Source: an uncultured Planctomycetota bacterium (lineage in GTDB: Bacteria; Planctomycetota; Planctomycetia; Isosphaerales; Isosphaeraceae). From it: 64,000 bases of DNA. Within the stretch, counting starts at the first letter, position 1; every line of letters starts with the position of its first letter. The notes beneath the pieces are model-generated. The model ran no database searches, was not told the origin of the DNA, and saw only the letters and a list, made by a program, of their open reading frames with translations. Location: assembly GCA_963845755.1 (NCBI GenBank), contig CAWJTV010000034.1:736517-800516 (forward strand), written 5' to 3'. This document shows, piece by piece, positions 54,493 to 64,000 of this stretch. The translations under genes were made by a program, and so were the position numbers.

Positions 54493-57400
54493 TCAGGGCA
54501 TGGTCTGAACCGGCCGGAAGCCCACGTCGCCGCCCCGATCCCACGGTGCCAGGTAATTGCCTTCCGAGGATTGGATGGTCAGCGGCCCGTGCCCGAAGGC
54601 GCCACCCCGAAAGATCCGTGAGGTCGCGTCGTTGACGATACCGGCCGACGCGTCCGGCCCGCCCTCAGCCACGCGGCCTTGCCGGTCCTGGCACCATTCC
54701 CAGGCGTTGCCGTGCATATCGAAGAGACCCAGGTCGTTGGGCCGCAGCGTCCCGACCGGGTGCAGCCGGCTCCACGCGTTGCTGAGACACCAGGCGTACT
54801 TCGGTAACAGGTCTTCGGCCTCGCCGAGCGACCAGCGCGTCACGCTGCCGGCGCGGCAGGCGTACTCCCACTCGTTCGTCGTCGGCAGCCGGTACCCGGA
54901 CCGGGTCCGGAAATCGGCAACCACCTTCATCCCCTGAGCATACTGACCCTTCTCGTTGGGCACGTAACACCACTGCTCCTTCGGGATGCCCTCCTGCTCG
55001 CTCAGCCAGTTGCAGTAGGCCGCCGCGTCGTACCACGTCACCTCATGGGCCGGGCAGTCGTCGGTCCGGGCGAAGGAATCGGGAGTGACCGGGACCTTGC
55101 GGAAGCGGCGGAATTCGGCGATGGTCACTTCGCGGCGCCGAGATGGCGAGGGCGTGATCGATCCGGAGCTGGGTTCGCCCCTCCCCCGATCCTCGCTGAA
55201 TCCGACCCGGCGGGACGAGGACCATCGTCTGGCCCTGGCCATTGACGAACCAGCGTCGAGGACCGCCCGACCTCGCGCCGGCCGCGGCGCGGTCGATCTC
55301 CGCCAGGCGCCCCTGTTGCCCCCAATGGCGCAGCAACCAGTTGACCGCCCCATGGACTCCCGGGTCAGGGTCGTTCTGGTAAAGCGCGACGAGCCCCGTG
55401 GCCAGTCTCTCCCGTTCCGAGGGCGGCAGGCGGTCTTCGTCGAACTCCCCGAGCGCCAGCAGGGCGGCCCGACGGACCGAGACATCACCGTCCCCCATGA
55501 GCAGGGCTTTCACCCCCGCGGCCGCGGCCCCGCCCCGTCCCAGGCGGTCGATCAGGTAGCTACGCAGCGTCGGATCGGGAGCGTGCTGTAGCAAAGGAAT
55601 GGCGCGTTGCCAACGCCCGAGGGAAGCGAGGGCCGCCGCCGCGTTGGCCCGCCGCCGCTGCCGGGTCTGGCGGACATCCAGGTCGGCCGCCGGTTCGCCC
55701 TCCCCGGCCGCTTCCTTCTCCAGGGAAACGAAGGCGTCCGGCAGACCCTCGGCGTAGTCGCCGAAGACACCGGTCATCGTGCGGCGGCCGGCCGCATCGA
55801 GCCCGTCCTCCACGAGGAGGGCGGCCAGGGGAGACAGCAGGTGTCGGCGCACCGGCCGCAACGCACCCGCCCAGCGCGCCAGTGACAGGCCGTCCTCCGC
55901 CATCAGCCGTGCCGCGACGTCACGATTGACGTCCTGCCACCGCGCATCGTCCGGGGCGTACTCCGCCAGCGCGCAGGCCGCGCGCAGGCGCTCGCCCGGC
56001 AGATTCTTGCGATTCCCCAGAACTTCCCAGAACCGCGCGCTGACTTCCGCCTCGTGCGGCTGCAAGGCCCGGCGAATGACCAGCACCTCCTGCGGGCCGG
56101 CGGTCAACAGCCTCTCGCGGAGGTAGCCAACCTGTTCCCGCGACACCGGCAGCAGGCCCAGACTGGCGTGCAATTGTCGCCGCGGATCATGGCGGGCTTT
56201 GGCGTCCTCGTAGGCCCCGCGCAAGGGACCGTCGAGCCAGCGTCGGTATGGGCCCATTTCGCCCACGATTTCCGGCACGTCCTCGGTCGCGGCCTCGAGC
56301 AGGCGATTCTGCAAGCCCTGGGCGCGTTGTCGGCCGTAACCCTCTCGGGCGATCACGAGCAGCAGTGCCAGGCCGGCCGATAGCAGCAATCCTCTCGTCG
56401 CGTGGTGGCGGGCGGCCCGTCGCATCATCGTCCGCTGCGGCGTCGTCCAGTCCCGAGGTCGCGTGAGCAGGCGGAGGGCCAGCCATTCCCACCACGGAGG
56501 TAGGAAGCGGTTCTCCGGCTGGCCGCTCCACAGGGCGGTTTGCTCGGCCAGGCGCAGCTCGGCCCGCCCGCGCCGGGTCTCCCGCAGCTTCCGCGTGAGC
56601 CAGTCCCGCAACGACGGCACCAGGTAGTCGTGCGTGAGCTGGTAGTAGCTCGGCACGCGCGTTCGACTCGGTCCCGGACGGGCCCGATGCCGAAGGCCCC
56701 GGCTGGCCGTTCGGCGGCGCCCCTCCGCCTCGTTCACCATCCCCGCGAGATCGGTCGGTGTGATCAGGCGCAGCTCGGCGTCCAGGATGTGGAGCAGGTC
56801 CTCGAACGCCCGCGGTCGGTCCGCGTAGCCCGAGAGCCGCAACAGCTCGTCCTCGGAACGCATATGCCCCTTGATGTCGGTCCCGGAGTTGGGCAGCAGC
56901 GCTTTCAGGATCGCCCGCGCCGCCTCCTGGTGGTAGCGGTGCTCGGGAGGCGCGTCGGCGGCGCTGAAAGTTTCTTCCAGGAAGGTGGCGCCCACTCCGA
57001 GCGTGCCTCCCACCCCGCGCAGTGATGCCGGCGTCCAGGCTCGGTCCTTCATCATCTGGGCGAACAGGGCCAGCCGGACGCAGATCACTTTCCCTTCCTG
57101 GGACAGGCCCGAGACCGCTTGCTCCACGAAATGCCGCTGCTCGCGGCCCAGGTTCCCGGGGACATCGGGCAGTGCGCCGAAGGCCCGCCCGAAGGCGGCG
57201 AGCACCTTCTCGGCGTGGCGCACCGGGAACAGGTCCACGGCCGCGGAGTTGCGCCCCTCGACCAGCGGGACCTCCAGCTCCCCCATGAATCGCGTCGCCG
57301 CCATCCAGAAATCGTCCCGGACCAGGACCAGGCACTGGACCCGTCCCCCGTCGCACTGCCGCAGCGCCTCGACCAGCTCGCCCTCGGGCGACTCTCGCCG

Positions 57401-58929
57401 CGCGTGCAGCCACTGCTCGAACTGATCCAGCACGATGAGCAACTTCTTCCCCGCCGGCAGGGCCTGGCCGCGACGCAGACTGGCCAGGGTCGCCGGCAGA
57501 CCCTCGGTCGGCGACAGGTCAGGGCAGTGCTTCGCCAGCAACGCTCTCAGCCGGGCCTCCGTCCGGTCGGCCGTAGCCTCGACGTAGACGGCCAGGACAT
57601 GATCGGCCAGCAGGGGAACAAGACCCGCCTTGACCAGCGACGACTTGCCACAGCCGGACGGCCCGTAGATCAGCCCCACGGGAAACGTCTCCCCGGGGTC
57701 GGTCTGCTCGACGCCGGTCTTCCAGAATCGGATGCTCTCGGGCAAGCCTTCCCGATCCCGCGGGCCGGGCAAGAGGCTCAGGAAGAAGTCCGCGTCGGCG
57801 GCGTCGAAGGACCGCAAACCCCGCGGGACGACCGTCGCGGCTACACCCTGCGAGGGGAAGCTGTTCGTGCTCGCCGGTGGATTCCGGTGGCTCGCCGAGA
57901 CCGGTGTTGTGCTGGGCAGGACCTTCATCCACGCCGCCGGCGAGCCCGAGCCCTCGGCGCCGGAGGCGAGGACATGTTCCAGGTCGTCGGCCAGGTCATG
58001 GGCCGTACTGTACCGTTCCGAGGCCCGGCGGGCGAGGGCCTTGAGGCAAATGCGGCTCCAGCTCGCGGGAGATGGCGGCGTCCAGATGACGCGGAGGGCG
58101 GGGTTCGGCCTCCGCGACCAGCCGTAGGGTCTCCTCCAGGGAAGTGGCGCGGAAGGGCCGCTTCCGGGTCAGCAGTTCGTACAGGACCACGCCCAGGCTG
58201 AAGACGTCGGAACGCCCGTCGACCCGGTGCCCCTCCCCGCGAGCTTGTTCGGGACTCATGTAAGACGGCGTCCCCGCATAGCTCGGAGCGGTGTCGAAGC
58301 TCGTCTCGCGCAGGGCCAGACCGAAGTCGGCCACATAAGGCCGGCCGGCGGGATCGAGAAGGATGTTGCCGGGCTTGATGTCGCGGTGGACGACGCCCCG
58401 CTGATGGGCGTGGTGCAAGGCCTCGGCGACGGTCGTGACCAGCCGCGCCGCCTCGGAGAAGGACGGCCATTGCAGCTTGACCTGTTGGGCCAGCGTCCGG
58501 CCTTCGATGAACTTCGAAACGATGAAGCATGGGAAGTCGGGACCGCTCCCGACGTCGTAGACCGGCACGATGTTCGGGTGGTCGAGGTGCCGCCGCGGCG
58601 CGGGCTTCGGCCAGGTAGAATTGGGCGGCCTCGGGGACGGGGACCAGCTTGGGGTGCGGCACCTTGACCGCAACCTGGCGCTCCAACTGCTCGTCGTCGA
58701 CGAGGTAGACCCTGCCGAATCCTCCCTCGCCGAGCAGGGAACGAACGCGGTACCGGCCGATATGCGACGGGCCCCCGTCCCTCCCTTCTACGGCGGAAAC
58801 AGGCTCGCCGGATCCGGCTGTGACGGTCGGTCCGACGAGGCATCCCCGGATCCGAGCGACATCGCCAGCAGGTACACCTTCGCACTCTCCGACCGCCATG
58901 GTCCGGTCAAGTTCCCCTGAGCTATCCAT
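54493..58929 (-). CDS. Ser/Thr kinase - STAND-type P-loop ATPase - HEAT - FGE-sulfatase (SUMF1) multidomain protein (several frameshifts)
   Basis: LGEGGFG, VAVK, HRDIKPGN, DFG; GPSGCGKSS and IVLDQFEQ; RLPT..EWEYACRAG, PNDLGLFDMHGNAWEW, GFRP. Confidence 0.9.
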
Positions 58930-59134
58930 GAGCGCCTCGAGCCGACATCTTCGGGGCAACCTCATCCCGCCTGGATGATAACAGACCGATGGTCAGGCCG
59001 CCAAGGTTCCTGAGCGACGTCGTGCGGGGCAGGTGGCCGTTTCCCAGGTCATGAGAAGGCGCATCAAAGGCGACCCCGATGGCCCGGGAAGCGAGCCAGA
59101 AAAAGTCCGGAAATGTTCCCATGCGAAATCTGCC

Positions 59135-59192
59135 GCTTGACGCCCAGCTTCAGCGGCCCGCGCCGCGGGTCCGCTGCAACCGCAGGTCAGGC
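59135..59192 (-). repeat. attC-like site 1 (R'' GCCTGAC, R' GTCAAGC)
   Basis: 58-bp imperfect palindrome with family core. Confidence 0.8.
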
Positions 59193-59368
59193 ATCTTTCT
59201 CGCCTGTGCCCTTTGAACTGATACGCTCGCGCGGTTGGTAGGCTCGACCCCACTCCCAGGCCAGGAAGCGCCACCCCCACCCGAGACAACGTCCCTCGGA
59301 TGGACTGCCCGGAGTTCGGTATGTGATCGCCAGTCCCCCCAAAACAACCCAAGACTCCGCATTGAGCA

Positions 59369-59426
59369 GTCTAACACAGAGGTTTAGGGTCCCGCGCAGC
59401 AGGTCCGCTACAATGCATCGCTATTC
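59369..59426 (-). repeat. attC-like site 2 (R'' GAATAGC, R' GTTAGAC)
   Basis: 58 bp, diverged; upstream ORF stop lies in R''. Confidence 0.7.
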
Positions 59427-59711
59427 GACGGTGCCATGGTGTGGGAAAATGCTGAACTTCTTACACGTCCTGCACCAGCGTCCTCTCCCGAGAGTCGCCC
59501 AGACGATGAGGTAAGCACCCGCCGGGACGAGGATGATCGCTGGCCCCCAGAAGAACGGGACAAAGCCAGCGACCGGAAGGGAGGCGATCATCCCGAGGCC
59601 AACGAGAAAGAGCCGGAGCCGGCTCTTCTGAAGCATTTCGCCGCCACACGTTCTGCATCCTGGTTCGGGCATGACACTGAAGCTACCTAATCCGCACCCG
59701 GGTTCGGGCAT
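59421..59711 (-). CDS. Cassette: small membrane protein, CxxC-2TM-CxxC, duplicated N-terminus
   Basis: CRTC...two TM...CRTC; MPEPGC twice (true start may be 59672). Confidence 0.75.
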   Translation of the reverse strand: MPEPGCGLGSFSVMPEPGCRTCGGEMLQKSRLRLFLVGLGMIASLPVAGFVPFFWGPAIILVPAGAYLIVWATLGRGRWCRTCKKFSIFPHHGTVE

Positions 59712-59723
59712 GACGCTGAAGCC

Positions 59724-59783
59724 GCCTGACGACCAGGTTCGGCGGCCCGGGCGGAGCGGGTCCGCTGCATCGCTTCGTCAGAC
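59724..59783 (-). repeat. attC-like site 3 (R'' GTCTGAC, R' GTCAGGC)
   Basis: 60-bp imperfect palindrome. Confidence 0.8.
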
Positions 59784-59784
59784 A

Positions 59785-60207
59785 TCATTGTGACTTCGGG
59801 AAGACCGCCGGCACAGTATCATCCCCTCGAATCGGCCGACTGACCTGAGTCCACCCGCCCTCGTCCTCTAACTGATAGTTCAGGATGCATCGATCTTTCT
59901 GGAAGTTAAGCGTGAAATGAGGTCCCTTCACATAGCGATGCGGGGTGTAGGAGTTGTGGTCAGTCCGCCAACCGTCGGGATGCGACCGAAGCCATGCGTC
60001 GAGGATACGGTCCTCCTCTGATCCCGTGGCGATGGCACGTTCGGAAACCGGCCGCCCATCTTCGTAGACCAGGATGTGTGTCGCTGGTCCCAGCTTGGCG
60101 ACCGCCACGGTTTGACGTGGGATCGAGCAACCGACGACCATCGACAGTAGAATCGCCCCGACGGCATCGGCGAGCGCTGGCAGTGGGGGCTTCCTCGTAC
60201 GATCCAT
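59785..60207 (-). CDS. Cassette: putative lipoprotein
   Basis: Lipobox VVGC; stop immediately before site 3. Confidence 0.75.
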   Translation of the reverse strand: MDRTRKPPLPALADAVGAILLSMVVGCSIPRQTVAVAKLGPATHILVYEDGRPVSERAIATGSEEDRILDAWLRSHPDGWRTDHNSYTPHRYVKGPHFTLNFQKDRCILNYQLEDEGGWTQVSRPIRGDDTVPAVFPKSQ

Positions 60208-60232
60208 CTTTTGACCCCCCGAATGCCTTGGC

Positions 60233-60361
60233 GTCTAACACGCTGTTTCAAAACGGGGACTGGCTCCGAGACTTCGAGGTGCCTGTCCTCCTTTTGAAAC
60301 CACCATAAAGGCTCAGGTTCAACCGCCCGCGCAGCGGGTCCGCTGCAAGCTTTCGTCAGGT
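60233..60361 (-). repeat. attC-like site 4 (R'' ACCTGAC) with 67-bp palindromic insertion at R'
   Basis: Core at 60319-60347; insert 60239-60305 flanked by TAA repeats, arms TTTCAAAA/TTTTGAAA. Confidence 0.75.
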
Positions 60362-60371
60362 TGCACGGGTA

Positions 60372-60881
60372 TCACCCGTAGATGACAACCGCGAGGCCGC
60401 GGCTCGAGTCCGCACCGCGGCGGACAACGTCCAGCCAGAAATCTCCATACTTGGCGAACTCTTCATGGGTCTCGAAGCGATGCTGCCGGCCCATCGAGAA
60501 GACTGCTCGACACTCCTCAAGATCGATGCAACGGGCCATCTCGCCGAACCTCCTGGTCGTCTCCGGTCCCCACGCGATGTCGAGGCCGAAAGGCCGCTTC
60601 ATTCCCCCGATCTCAACGATCTGGTATCGTTCGTCCTCTCGATAACTCCAGAATAAGTGGGCGAAGAGGTTGTTGCAGGCAGTCGCCGCGTCACTTGTCC
60701 ACTTCCTTCGCATCGCGACGAGCCCATCCATAAAGTCATACTGCGCGGAGAGAAGACCCGAACAGTCTCTCGGTTCCCAATCCAGCGGTTCGACGGCACG
60801 GTAGGTATCGTTCGTCTCAGAAAGTCTACACGTGAAAGCGGGCCAGTCACCGATAAGGTAGACTTCGCAATCGACTCCCAT
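60372..60881 (-). CDS. Cassette: hypothetical protein
   Basis: GGAGG RBS, ATG 60881, 169 aa between sites 5 and 4. Confidence 0.75.
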   Translation of the reverse strand: MGVDCEVYLIGDWPAFTCRLSETNDTYRAVEPLDWEPRDCSGLLSAQYDFMDGLVAMRRKWTSDAATACNNLFAHLFWSYREDERYQIVEIGGMKRPFGLDIAWGPETTRRFGEMARCIDLEECRAVFSMGRQHRFETHEEFAKYGDFWLDVVRRGADSSRGLAVVIYG

Positions 60882-60894
60882 GGCGCCTCCGACA

Positions 60895-60954
60895 ACCGAT
60901 AGCCTGAATTCAGCGGCCCGCCGAAGGCGGGTCCGCGGCATCGCCTCGTGAGAC
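60895..60954 (-). repeat. attC-like site 5 (R'' GTCTCAC, R' eroded TATCGGT)
   Basis: 60 bp with family core. Confidence 0.7.
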
Positions 60955-61143
60955 GGGCCGTCCCGTCTCGCGCAGGGTAGAGGCACCCGCCAGCAAAAGC
61001 AACAGGCCAGCGAGGACGATGCCGGCGACCGAGTACCACCCGAAGCCGAAGGCATGGGGGCCGGACACCAGGCCATCGGCGACGACCAAGGCGCCGGCCA
61101 GGAGGAATAACGACCCGGCGATGGTTTTGGCTCGCAGTCTCAC
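60910..61143 (-). CDS. Cassette: small 2-TM protein reading through site 5
   Basis: GTG start; two hydrophobic helices; GTCTCAC would be an in-frame TAA if canonical GTCTAAC. Confidence 0.6.
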   Translation of the reverse strand: MRLRAKTIAGSLFLLAGALVVADGLVSGPHAFGFGWYSVAGIVLAGLLLLLAGASTLRETGRPVSRGDAADPPSAGR

Positions 61144-61178
61144 GAGATCACCCAATGGCCATTCGATACGGGAAGCCC

Positions 61179-61277
61179 GTCTATCGATAAGCTCCGCGGC
61201 ACGGCCCGCTGAGCACCGCCTGGATGTTACCAGAACGCGACGCGTCGAGCCGAGTCCGCTGAAGCGCGAGATCATGC
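61179..61277 (-). repeat. attC-like site 6, long form (R'' GCATGAT, R' GATAGAC)
   Basis: 99 bp; TTCAGCGGACTCGGC...GCCGTGCCGCGGAGC. Confidence 0.6.
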
Positions 61278-61629
61278 CTCGGGCCTCGGCATGGTGCGTC
61301 GGGACTCGCGACTGACGCGACAACGGAACGCCCGCGAATCTCAGCCAGCCAGCGACATCGAAACTCGGCCTGCCGGGAGCGAAGCCATCCGTTCCGCAAT
61401 TGTAAGGCCCGGCATCGTCCTCAACGATGATCGTCCCCTGCTCGTCGGGCACCATCACGAGCCTCGCCACGAACTTGGAGAAAGCCTCCTCCGAGAAGAG
61501 TTCGGTGCGAAGATTGGCGATCACAGCAGGCCGAACGCGGACCCGGTCGGGCCACCGCACATGTCGGAGATAGAAGCCGTCGATTGCCGCCCGAAGCCGG
61601 ACCCAGTTCTTGTCATGGCCGTTGGGCAT
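61272..61629 (-). CDS. Cassette: hypothetical protein; 3' end apparently frameshifted into next cassette
   Basis: GGAGAGG RBS, MPNGHDKNWVRL...; TGA in R'' is out of frame. Confidence 0.6.
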
Positions 61630-61645
61630 GCCCTGCCTCTCCGAC

Positions 61646-61828
61646 GGCTAACGTCCCCGATCAGCGGGTCCGCTGGATCGAATCGTTAGAGTCGTCCTTC
61701 GTAGGATCCCTCCGCCCTGCCGCACTCCGGGGATTCCGAATTCCGGATTCCCGGATCATTCCCCTTCGGGAATCGGGAATCTCGAATCGGGAATCCCGAT
61801 TGGGTTGCGGCCGAAGGCCGCGTTAGGC
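61646..61828 (-). repeat. attC-like site 7 (R'' GCCTAAC, R' GTTAGCC), centrally deleted and split by a miniature element
   Basis: Reconstructed empty site is 46 bp. Confidence 0.7.
61690..61823 (+). mobile_element. 134-bp copy of the 7511-type miniature element
   Basis: Same ends; TAG at 61687-89 and 61824-26. Confidence 0.85.
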
Positions 61829-62308
61829 GTTACTGACCACCCAAAGGTAAACCAACCGGGCGAAGCCGAACACAAAGAAGAAGCCCCCGGCTCCGAAAAG
61901 GGACACAGACGCCGCAAGCCATCGCCCAGCCGTGCTGTATATCTGATTCCGCGTATCGGAAGCTGACTTCACCTCGGCTCCGTTGTCGGGGACCCTCGCC
62001 AGCCGAATCGCCTTGATGTGATAATGCAAGCCGTCCGCAGAATGATATCGGTGGGACAGGGCACAAGCAGTCGCCATGATGAACAGTAGCGAGGAAATGC
62101 CCAGACATAATCCGGCCCAAGCATCGCGCATCTGTACAGGAGCATCCTTGCTTGCGGCAAGGTTTACGAGGAAGAACGCCAGACCGGCGATGCCCAGCAA
62201 GGACAATCGAATGATCTCAGCGGAATAGCTCTGATACTGGGTCAACAATTCTACGTCGGCACGATACTGATCTTCCGGGACAGGAGTCGTGCCAAGATCG
62301 GTCTTCAC
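61823..62308 (-). CDS. Cassette: 3-TM membrane protein
   Basis: GGAGG RBS, GTG start; stop TAA inside R'' GCCTAAC. Confidence 0.78.
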   Translation of the reverse strand: MKTDLGTTPVPEDQYRADVELLTQYQSYSAEIIRLSLLGIAGLAFFLVNLAASKDAPVQMRDAWAGLCLGISSLLFIMATACALSHRYHSADGLHYHIKAIRLARVPDNGAEVKSASDTRNQIYSTAGRWLAASVSLFGAGGFFFVFGFARLVYLWVVSNA

Positions 62309-62337
62309 GCGCGAACCTCCCGACTCCGAACGGAGCC

Positions 62338-62442
62338 GCCTGACACAAAGCAAAGCTCAGCGGCCCGGCCCGCCGAGGATGAGCGTCGACTCCGCCAGAG
62401 GCCGCCGCGGCGGGCCGGGTCCGCTGAAGCGGCGGGTTAGTC
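62338..62442 (-). repeat. attC-like site 8, long form (R'' GACTAAC, R' GTCAGGC)
   Basis: 105 bp, long stem CAGCGGACCCGGCCCGCCG/CGGCGGGCCGGGCCGCTG. Confidence 0.82.
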
Positions 62443-62451
62443 TCGCCGTAG

Positions 62452-63081
62452 CTACGGAAGGAGGTCTCGACTGTTGTCGAAAACGCAGCCGTCTCCCCCC
62501 GCCCACCTCACGTCCTGGAAACGATCCGTATCCCAGAATACGATCGGTCGAGTCCCCGTGGGAACGGTCCACTCCGCTTGCTCGTCTTCGGTCATCAAGA
62601 ACTCGTGGGCGAGATAGTCCCGCAAGTCCGTACCATAGACGATGATATCGGTCTGGTGAACCGAGAACACCGGGTTGCCCGCCAGATGAGGTTCGGCGGG
62701 CATCATCCGGTGCATGTACAACGGGATGAGCCGCGGAGCCGCGGCGACCAACTGCTCGGCAACCCGCTTCGCCTCGACCGTCGATCGCGGGCGTGGTCCC
62801 CATTCCTCCAACCAAAATCCGTTGTGTTCGACATCAAAGACGACACCGCTACGAGGCAGATCAAACCAGTCCCGCAGGGCTGCTTCGTCTCCGGAACGCC
62901 AGTCGGGAAACCGCTCGCCCCGTGGCAGGGCGGTCTGGAGGAACGTCCGCAGGTCGGGCGGGAACCGGAACGCGAACCGTGACTCGGCAGCGGCGACTTC
63001 GGCGTCCGATAGCCCGTCATCGAAGACGATGCCGCGCGACCGCAGATGGGCAATCATGTCGTCCCAAACGTCCGCATCCAC
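62452..63081 (-). CDS. Cassette: SMI1/KNR4-like protein
   Basis: GLSDAEVAAAESRFAFRFPPDLRTFL, APRLIPL, NPVFSVHQTDIIVYG. Confidence 0.8.
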   Translation of the reverse strand: MDADVWDDMIAHLRSRGIVFDDGLSDAEVAAAESRFAFRFPPDLRTFLQTALPRGERFPDWRSGDEAALRDWFDLPRSGVVFDVEHNGFWLEEWGPRPRSTVEAKRVAEQLVAAAPRLIPLYMHRMMPAEPHLAGNPVFSVHQTDIIVYGTDLRDYLAHEFLMTEDEQAEWTVPTGTRPIVFWDTDRFQDVRWAGGDGCVFDNSRDLLP

Positions 63082-63097
63082 GACTACGACCTCCGCC

Positions 63098-63155
63098 GCC
63101 TAAAGCCAAGGTTCAGCGGCCCGCGCAGCGGGTCCGCTGGCACCGCCGGTTACGC
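63098..63155 (-). repeat. attC-like site 9 (R'' GCGTAAC, R' TTTAGGC)
   Basis: 58-bp imperfect palindrome. Confidence 0.8.
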
Positions 63156-63409
63156 GGCGGTTCGGACATCTTTTCGGCCTCCAACTCTTGGAGGGCTTCC
63201 GGGGCGAAGTCCGCCCCATTGGGCCAAACGACCGTACCGCAAATCGAGCCCAATGTCACGCACGCGAAATACGCTGGGTCTCGGAGTGGCTCGAAGATCG
63301 GGCCATCGAGCCGTGGACGCACATCGACCTGCCTGGTCGTTCCATCATTGAAAGTCAACCGCAACGAATGTGGCCCACAGACCCGCGCCTCACGGATGCG
63401 AAGGATCAT
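63113..63409 (-). CDS. Cassette: DUF2442-family protein (putative antitoxin)
   Basis: LRLTFNDG, GPIFEPLRDP, GTVVWPNGADFAPEAL. Confidence 0.85.
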   Translation of the reverse strand: MILRIREARVCGPHSLRLTFNDGTTRQVDVRPRLDGPIFEPLRDPAYFACVTLGSICGTVVWPNGADFAPEALQELEAEKMSEPPRNRRCQRTRCAGR

Positions 63410-63424
63410 ATCCCACTCCTCGAC

Positions 63425-63650
63425 TCACTCCAGCCCCTCGATCGTTGGCAGAGGCTGGCTGGCACGCGCCAGTTCCCAGGAATGCTCCAATTCGTCGCGA
63501 TGGGCTGCGGCCCACTCTGAGACGAGTGTCCGTGCACGCCGCGGCATATGGCCCTCGAGTACCTCGGCCGTCTCGATCGACACCGTGGCCTCGTACTCGC
63601 CGTCCGTCGATGGCGTGGAGGTGTCGATTGCGTAGAGGGTGACCAAGCCT
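63425..63650 (-). pseudogene. Cassette: 5'-truncated DUF4160-family gene (putative toxin)
   Basis: EVLEGHMPRRARTLVSEWAAAHRDEL...W...LPTIEGLE present; N-terminal HxPPH region absent. Confidence 0.7.
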
Positions 63651-63656
63651 TGATCT

Positions 63657-63717
63657 GCCTGAAGCGAGGGTTCAGCGGCCCGCCGAGAGGCGGGTCCGCT
63701 GCAACCAATTGATGGGC
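63657..63717 (-). repeat. attC-like site 10 (R'' GCCCATC, R' TTCAGGC)
   Basis: 61-bp imperfect palindrome. Confidence 0.78.
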
Positions 63718-63723
63718 TCCAGC

Positions 63724-63987
63724 CTATGCCGACCAGACCTCGGTGCCAGGTGGCACATCGGATTTGGGTAAGGCCACCACGATCGCGTAAGCACCGTGCT
63801 CGCTGACGTTGAAGAAGTCGATGCCATCGATCGCCGTCCGAACTTCCGACCCATCGGGGCGGCGCAGGCACAAGCCGTCGCCGATATGGAACCGCTCATC
63901 GCCCTCAGGCACGATTCCCGGCACGAGGATGGTGCCACGCTGACGGATCGTGAAGACATCCTCGACAGTAAAGAGTTAACGGACCAT
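63724..63987 (-). pseudogene. Cassette: small EF-Tu domain II-like beta-barrel protein with stop at codon 4
   Basis: GGAGG RBS, ATG GTC CGT TAA then LFTVEDVFTIRQRGTILVPG... Confidence 0.65.
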
Positions 63988-64000
63988 CGAGAGAGCCTCC

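Follow-up and report, generated by a model that had tools for sequence, protein, structure and literature searches.

A decayed attC cassette array at a contig end of an Isosphaeraceae genome, and attI/Pc platforms likely served in trans by a single integron integrase

Can a cassette array that stands without an integrase still belong to a working integron, and if so, where is the enzyme that serves it? This question is raised by a stretch of 64,000 nucleotides (the window) from an uncultured, soil-type Planctomycetota bacterium of the family Isosphaeraceae (assembly GCA_963845755.1, contig CAWJTV010000034.1, positions 736,517 to 800,516), in which ten related imperfect palindromes, all on a single strand, span positions 59135-63717. 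We consider it likely that the window holds the old and largely immobilised far end of one of seven cassette arrays, with ten attC sites, and that the single intact integrase of the genome serves in trans several platforms, each consisting of an attachment site (attI) and a cassette promoter (Pc). The support for this explanation is sequence comparison, from which recombination and expression are inferred. The source genome is labelled G000 and the contig of the window C34; C3, C5, C18, C36, C39, C41 and C47 are other contigs of G000.

The repeats of the window are real attC sites that separate minus-strand cassettes. Seven of them measure 58-61 bp, the two long ones reach 98 and 105 bp, and a form of 46 bp is without the stem tip; set against an attC length of 57-141 bp with an unpaired central spacer, nine of the ten thus lie at 58-105 bp and one at 46 bp. 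The arm motif GGGTCCGCTGVA (at most one mismatch) matches the window 11 times, with 9 matches inside attC sites, compared to a shuffle mean of 2.0 and no shuffle out of 100 reaching 11. Between neighbouring sites there is one short minus-strand gene or one toxin-antitoxin pair, with gene stops in or adjoining the R'' box (59421, 59785, 60372, 61823, 62452 and 63724) or within the site (60910 and 63113), and the array has 62% GC versus 70% in the flank. Folding of the window sites is weak evidence by itself (z of -2 or below in just 4 of 10), and a search of Rfam returned two sub-threshold matches only. The sequence-only reading of this DNA had described ten related palindromes alternating with minus-strand genes that stop in or next to R'', two extrahelical bases as in attC, and a cargo including SMI1/KNR4 and a toxin-antitoxin-like pair; all of this is borne out, at the same positions and on one strand, with an SMI1/KNR4-like gene and DUF4160/DUF2442 genes identified, save that the 46-bp form had been left out.

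The same sites occur throughout the genome. A profile seeded on 86 sites of G000 (matches of at least 21 bits counted) found 100 matches; 94 of them form seven clusters, each of one orientation, the other 6 stand alone as singletons, and five of the seven clusters end at intI/attI. The bottom strand has the layout R'(7)-6-L'(7)-stem-L''(8)-5-R''(7), with L'/L'' pairing and with extrahelical bases opposite AAC and 6 bp apart. The first of these is C in 78, G in 13 and A in 1 of the 92 catalogued sites, and T takes the second position in 88 of them; the published attC layout is identical, with G usual as the first base (PMC5027507). Covariation is seen in an L-box pair (A:T 40 and T:A 26, hence 66/84 paired versus 40.8 when permuted, the kinship of the sites overstating the significance). 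In 45 of 60 cassettes outside the window the longest open reading frame is on the top strand, and in 38 of 60 it ends near R''.

The sequence-only reading had proposed that the array has its own attC family, which does not hold: in its arms, its R boxes and the extrahelical G of the top strand, the repeat resembles the Planctomycetes attC model (Ghaly et al., 2021, PMC8352920; 188 sites, 103 positions), a match that rests on consensus sequences compared by eye. The consensus of that model starts GCCUAAC, contains GUU[G]CAgCGGA with the unpaired G, and ends GCUGAaC...GUUAGGC. The model has a variable centre and a length of about 100 nt, whereas most sites here have 58-61 nt and a short, fixed GC stem, about 100 nt being reached by a minority.

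Cassettes move as units in this genome, as seen from pairing with their own R'' and from identical cassettes beside different neighbours. For the former, 60 of the 78 adjacent site pairs in the six other arrays were used, 18 pairs more than 1.3 kb apart being dropped. Out of 3 positions, the 5' bases of a cassette agree with its own R'' at 2.38, versus 2.04 +/- 0.06 after shuffling (0 of 10,000 permutations), with 32 perfect matches to own R'' compared to 16 for the integrated hybrid. Three such pairings had been claimed earlier within the window, and all can be found, albeit each with a core mismatch and one only once a 141-bp repeat is removed. Cassettes also recur across arrays and positions at 95-100% identity with different neighbours; the last cassette of the window, for example, is found at C18:88642-88985 (95%), where the homology stops at R'. 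A joint in the C3 array that skips exactly one 459-bp cassette was rejected as evidence, its left side being a multicopy intron located at other near-identical attC sites.

The only intact intI of the genome (C3:161245-162186) is divergent from an eight-site array. Its product scores 485 bits against TIGR02249 (cut-off 265) and aligns over residues 15-326 to the Vibrio cholerae integrase VchIntIA (2A3V), including the insertion region (E 5e-103). Its nearest relative is from an Isosphaeraceae metagenome-assembled genome (82%), followed by three from Planctomycetota, in agreement with the planctomycete affinity proposed from the sequence alone. Four further arrays, on C39, C41, C18 and C47, likewise terminate, with unchanged geometry, at an intI that is broken: frameshifted in C39 and, in the other three, cut after about 77 codons at one and the same codon with the start codon lost. 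The common sequence of the five platforms starts at the TAAC crossover, thereby defining attI, and a sigma-70-like Pc candidate (TTGCAA-17-CATAAT; 1 found versus 0.2 expected) faces the cassettes beyond attI. Relative to C3, none of 20 attI positions and none of 12 positions of the Pc hexamers are altered in the four satellites, while their intI remnants show 35, 39, 39 and 61 differences per 230 positions. Given that the truncated copies of C41, C18 and C47 are one lineage, whose platforms differ mutually at 6-25 of 353 bases, this conservation counts as two independent observations.

These three platforms share one truncation, yet carry different first cassettes, and capture in trans is likely for this reason. 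The first cassette of C41 is 99.1-99.4% identical to three other copies, whereas its platform differs from the sister platforms by 23-25 of 353 bases; the cassette likely arrived after the platform had lost its integrase, which would imply integrase action in trans. Following established integron biology, IntI would bind the folded bottom strand and cut at AAC, and circular cassettes would be excised by attC x attC recombination and inserted at attI, with new cassettes entering beside Pc and older ones being pushed outward. The step that we infer here is that platform copies lost intI, kept attI and Pc, and continued capturing cassettes. Going further, and with a little less than even confidence, we suggest a distributed integron: the platform would be copied to several loci and shed its integrase, selection would keep it as an extra capture-and-expression slot, and one IntI acting in trans would shuffle a shared pool over at least five loci as old arrays freeze.

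The array in the window is the most decayed of the genome. Its R'' (RYYYAAC) and R' (GTTRRRY) cores are still recognisable, with 14 of 57 core-triplet positions altered (the ambiguous R' of site 5 left out) versus 18 of 504 in the six other arrays (p 3e-7). In the stems of the eight short sites only 10 of 144 positions are changed (p 0.001), and the excess in the core persists at A/T positions alone (12/38 versus 3/40, p 0.009). Profile scores of these eight sites are 23-43 bits compared to mostly 40-64 in the other arrays, repeats are inserted inside two sites (attC 4 and attC 7), and the genes decay as well: the early stop of the last gene is absent from the C18 copy, the DUF4160 gene is truncated at its 5' side, and fusion has joined two cassettes. 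A similar direction is observed in the five platform arrays, where deviations increase with the distance from attI (rho 0.39) and the cores are changed at 15 of 246 positions in distal halves versus 1 of 234 in proximal ones, a trend that reads as age plus survivorship. Since unpaired cores or an altered first base lower recombination several-hundred- to ten-thousand-fold under the rules known for IntI1 (PMC2811028), most window sites would be expected to recombine hardly at all, although sites 1 and 3, with a paired GTC, may still work with a normal partner. The window cassettes would then persist mainly through their mutated recombination cores, that is by survivorship and not through usefulness. 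A functional subfamily with GAC/GTC cores was rejected, as no compensation of the changes is seen within a cassette and relatives seldom have such cores.

How far the array reaches depends on what lies beyond the window, as position 64000 is the end of C34, at the ribosome-binding site of a cassette. Four public DNA runs, all from one study, carry the sequence as a small share, and no RNA run was listed as carrying it. No exact overlap of this end with any other contig end was found, and none of the public contigs at 2-3x depth pass position 64000 or contain a cassette-skipping joint in the array. Two other arrays, those of C39 and C47, are open at the distal end in matching orientation, each with a broken intI. 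The window array may be the far end of one of these, part of an unassembled platform, or a true attC-site cluster without an integron integrase (CALIN).

Relatives share the layout with several platforms. Among 121 family genomes (G000 included), an IntI above the cut-off is found in 35, the exact core pattern in 34 (with 0 control matches), and platform sequence in at least 14 (six candidates scored per genome). G046, one same-genus genome (87% complete), has at least four attI-like sites and no intI above the cut-off; G033 has at least six such sites, only one of which is followed by intI, in three pieces (possibly read errors), and G071 has three intI over full length. The cassettes common to G046 and G000 are 83-94% identical and stand in different orders. 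Of the platform loci of G000, G046 is syntenic with the C41 locus only, and a scan of 40 kb next to the G046 orthologue of the kinase gene flanking the window array found no attC match. Sedentary integrons are recognised by a fixed locus conserved among relatives, and here, with one same-genus genome, only the C41 locus is common. The homogeneity of the sites had earlier been taken to suggest a sedentary chromosomal array, an idea at odds with both the degree of decay and the absence of the array beside this orthologue. A conserved gene order, named by the same reading as a ground for its own refutation, is not seen: cassette order varies between arrays and between species.

Several observations weigh against the explanation that we favour. 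The assembled part of the window array adjoins neither attI nor intI, the sole intact intI being on another contig with an array of its own, and neither contig-end BLAST nor synteny with G046 supplied a join to C39, C47 or C18. With a completeness of 88%, the genome assembly may lack a second intact intI. In G046 the cores decay more than the stems as well (21/216 versus 20/648) in a genome without intact intI, and this bias therefore needs no present integrase; also, detection of sites by their stems inflates core-over-stem ratios. Finally, the bottom strand has no folding advantage (-17.1 versus -17.0 kcal/mol, 84 sites, p 0.36), and the top strand shows a GC skew of +0.04 rather than the negative skew of mobile-integron attC (PMC5027507), bottom-strand stability and purine richness being a tendency of such sites and no strict criterion.

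Other explanations have to be considered in this light. The window array might belong to an ordinary complete integron cut by the assembly and run on to its own intact intI and attI; the sequence-only reading, too, had placed any intI/attI beyond position 64000. The array breaks off with the contig, at a cassette's ribosome-binding site and in the orientation that places attI beyond, the genome is incomplete, some relatives such as G071 have several full intI, and CALINs are overcounted in draft assemblies (PMC9024848). Given that only one of five known platforms has an intact intI, that both arrays with matching open distal ends have broken ones, and that the decay extends right up to the contig end, we regard this as rather improbable. 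That the broken platforms are decaying duplicates, or remnants of repeated horizontal acquisition, with cassettes shared by block duplication or gene conversion, is unlikely. In its favour, C18 and C47 have a 2.2-kb block in common (97.7%), some common stretches cover two or three cassettes, platform copies of a single genome are mixed among those of others in a tree that is short and of weak support, and CALINs have been treated as degraded integrons (PMC9024848). Against this, common blocks begin at the attI crossover or stop at R boxes, attI and the Pc hexamers are unaltered while the neighbouring DNA drifts 15-27%, and the first cassettes differ among platforms with one truncation.

Positive selection could also have locked the window array, core mutations being favoured that keep useful cargo from excision. 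The 4-fold enrichment of core over stem changes, retained at A/T positions, would fit, as would the several window genes that are intact and have many homologues. It is nevertheless a very doubtful account, as the cargo is decaying (the early stop, the truncated DUF4160 gene and the fused frame), the array is missing from the same-genus genome, and survivorship together with detection bias gives the same pattern. A family of intergenic repeats or terminators with no link to integrons, akin to repetitive extragenic palindromes (REP) or bacterial interspersed mosaic elements, was suggested by GC-rich hairpins that follow gene ends, by true dispersed repeats nearby and by the six singletons. This is already refuted by the distribution and the linkage to intI, and its probability is negligible: the matches are not scattered in both orientations, which the sequence-only reading had named as its other refuting outcome, own-R'' pairing holds, and the arms match a published attC model.

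The favoured explanation, in which one IntI serves several platforms, has both precedents and differences among known systems. With the sedentary chromosomal integrons of Vibrio cholerae (IntIA and its attC repeats, VCR) and Xanthomonas (ilvD) the genome shares chromosomal arrays, here of up to 27 similar short-form attC, as well as mostly unknown cargo, toxin-antitoxin-type cassettes, and a divergent intI with the VchIntIA insertion region; intI is also frequently inactivated in Xanthomonas (bioRxiv 2025.06.18.660453). Different are the five platforms and seven arrays, mostly non-syntenic with G046, and whereas Xanthomonas has a single intI locus whose loss accompanies stable arrays (bioRxiv 2025.06.18.660453), platforms whose intI is broken apparently go on acquiring cassettes here. 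As assembled, the window cluster without nearby integrase resembles a CALIN (Cury et al., 2016, PMC4889954). Service of CALINs by an integrase elsewhere in the genome was proposed in that work, in which intI pseudogenes were found near only 15 of 279 CALINs and unknown attI could not be searched for; in contrast, most integrase-less arrays here keep a recognisable attI and a Pc-like site with the 5' end of intI. Insertions at attG sites (Loot et al., bioRxiv 2022.09.11.507474) may explain the six singletons and a four-site cluster of C39 without attI, but the large arrays begin at a conserved attI and not at scattered genomic sites. Integrons in Planctomycetes, genomes with several integrons, CALINs and service in trans have all been published (PMC4889954, PMC8618304, bioRxiv 2025.06.18.660453, PMC9024848, bioRxiv 2022.09.11.507474), while our literature search, which covered titles and the starts of abstracts with most subscription journals outside its scope, returned no report of one chromosome that carries several attI/Pc platforms, conserved and with stub intI.

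Further multicopy elements accompany the arrays. A multicopy gene without Pfam or NCBIfam match lies directly behind the broken intI (L020:6575-7684 in C47; also in C41 and C18) and, in three other genomes (L184, L147, L025), on the corresponding side of arrays or of intI; it may help platforms to spread. A group II intron (RVT_1, RVT_N, GIIM; Rfam Intron_gpII; L019, L021) starts in the top strand, in cassette orientation and five bases past the attC crossover, in six of seven 5'-end matches (C3:160277, C41:24834 and 30349, C47:9056, 12898 and 20386), the seventh being nested at the end of another copy. For IIC-attC introns, insertion in the bottom strand has been published (PMC3001079), and the intron found here may thus be of a different attC-targeting kind. 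An element of the IS110 family follows directly after R'' in all six end matches (C5:77370, C18:82050, C39:448598 and 461038, C47:2019 and 4798).

The features of the window are listed in Table 1. None of its ten cassette proteins was matched by PADLOC, no convincing cassette promoter was found (2 versus 1.0 expected), and the Atlas neighbours of two cassette proteins are unnamed and give weak leads only. The DUF4160/DUF2442 pair has a 78% identical homologue at C36:242737-243212 with no attC match near. In sites 1, 3 and 6 complementary core changes are present in both arms, though these come from different cassettes, by chance or by hairpin-templated correction. Stem-tip-less sites like site 7 have four matches in G046 (L144, L145) and represent a recurrent deletion form. 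The 141-bp repeat, often tandem, is bounded by TTAG on either side and has a terminal hairpin, and another copy is inserted at an attC of C39. Two 37-bp direct repeats (59652-59727), just upstream of a cassette gene, overlap attC 3, and the flanking kinase gene is spread over several frames, reflecting a pseudogene or read errors.

Table 1. Features of the window array and its flank (window coordinates).
Feature	Position	Strand	Remarks
Kinase/nSTAND1/FGE gene, flanking, no cassette	54493..58965	-	Orthologue in G046 without adjoining array
attC 1, distal end	59135..59192	-	58 bp; core altered to paired GAC/GTC
attC 2	59369..59426	-	58 bp; damage in stem and R''; folding z 0.11
Cassette gene, 96 aa	59421..59711	-	No family
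attC 3	59724..59783	-	60 bp; GAC/GTC core, paired
Cassette gene, 140 aa	59785..60207	-	No family
attC 4	60233..60361 (palindrome 60304-60361)	-	Original R' (60233-60239) separated from stem by repeat insertion
Palindromic repeat within attC 4, like a miniature inverted-repeat transposable element or REP	60240..60303		43 near-full copies in genome
Cassette gene, 169 aa	60372..60881	-	No named family
attC 5	60895..60954	-	60 bp; R' ambiguous: degenerate, or spacer lost
Two cassette genes merged into one open frame	60910..61629	-	Frame crosses attC 6 and enters attC 5
attC 6, long form	61179..61276	-	98 bp; degenerate
attC 7	61646..61691	-	46-bp form, stem tip missing
Dispersed repeat, 141 bp, in R'' of attC 7	61687..61827		TTAG ends; 142 near-full copies
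Cassette gene, 176 aa, hydrophobic	61823..62353	-	No named family
attC 8, long form	62338..62442	-	105 bp; folding z -3.25
SMI1/KNR4 (SUKH)-like cassette gene, 209 aa	62452..63081	-	PF09346 E 8e-4, below cut-off; Planctomycetes homologues named SMI1/KNR4
attC 9	63098..63155	-	58 bp; R' crossover base altered
DUF2442 antitoxin-type gene	63113..63409	-	E 1e-10
DUF4160 toxin-type gene	63425..63640	-	5' part missing
attC 10	63657..63717	-	61 bp; core altered at three positions
Last cassette gene	63724..63987	-	Early stop; copy in C18 array, 95% identical

The array itself is known machinery and ordinary integron biology, whereas the integrase-less attI/Pc satellites are a modest novelty. The genomic context outweighs the array, as it bears on where integrase-less attC clusters come from and what they do, which is an open question (PMC4889954; bioRxiv 2022.09.11.507474). 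Service in trans becomes directly testable in this genome, since attI is defined, a Pc candidate and a single IntI are available, and the cassette gains of the four satellites can be dated. If the integron is indeed distributed, a cell with one integrase could express the first cassettes of several arrays simultaneously, and many clusters recorded as CALINs would be functional satellites with an unrecognised, taxon-specific attI.

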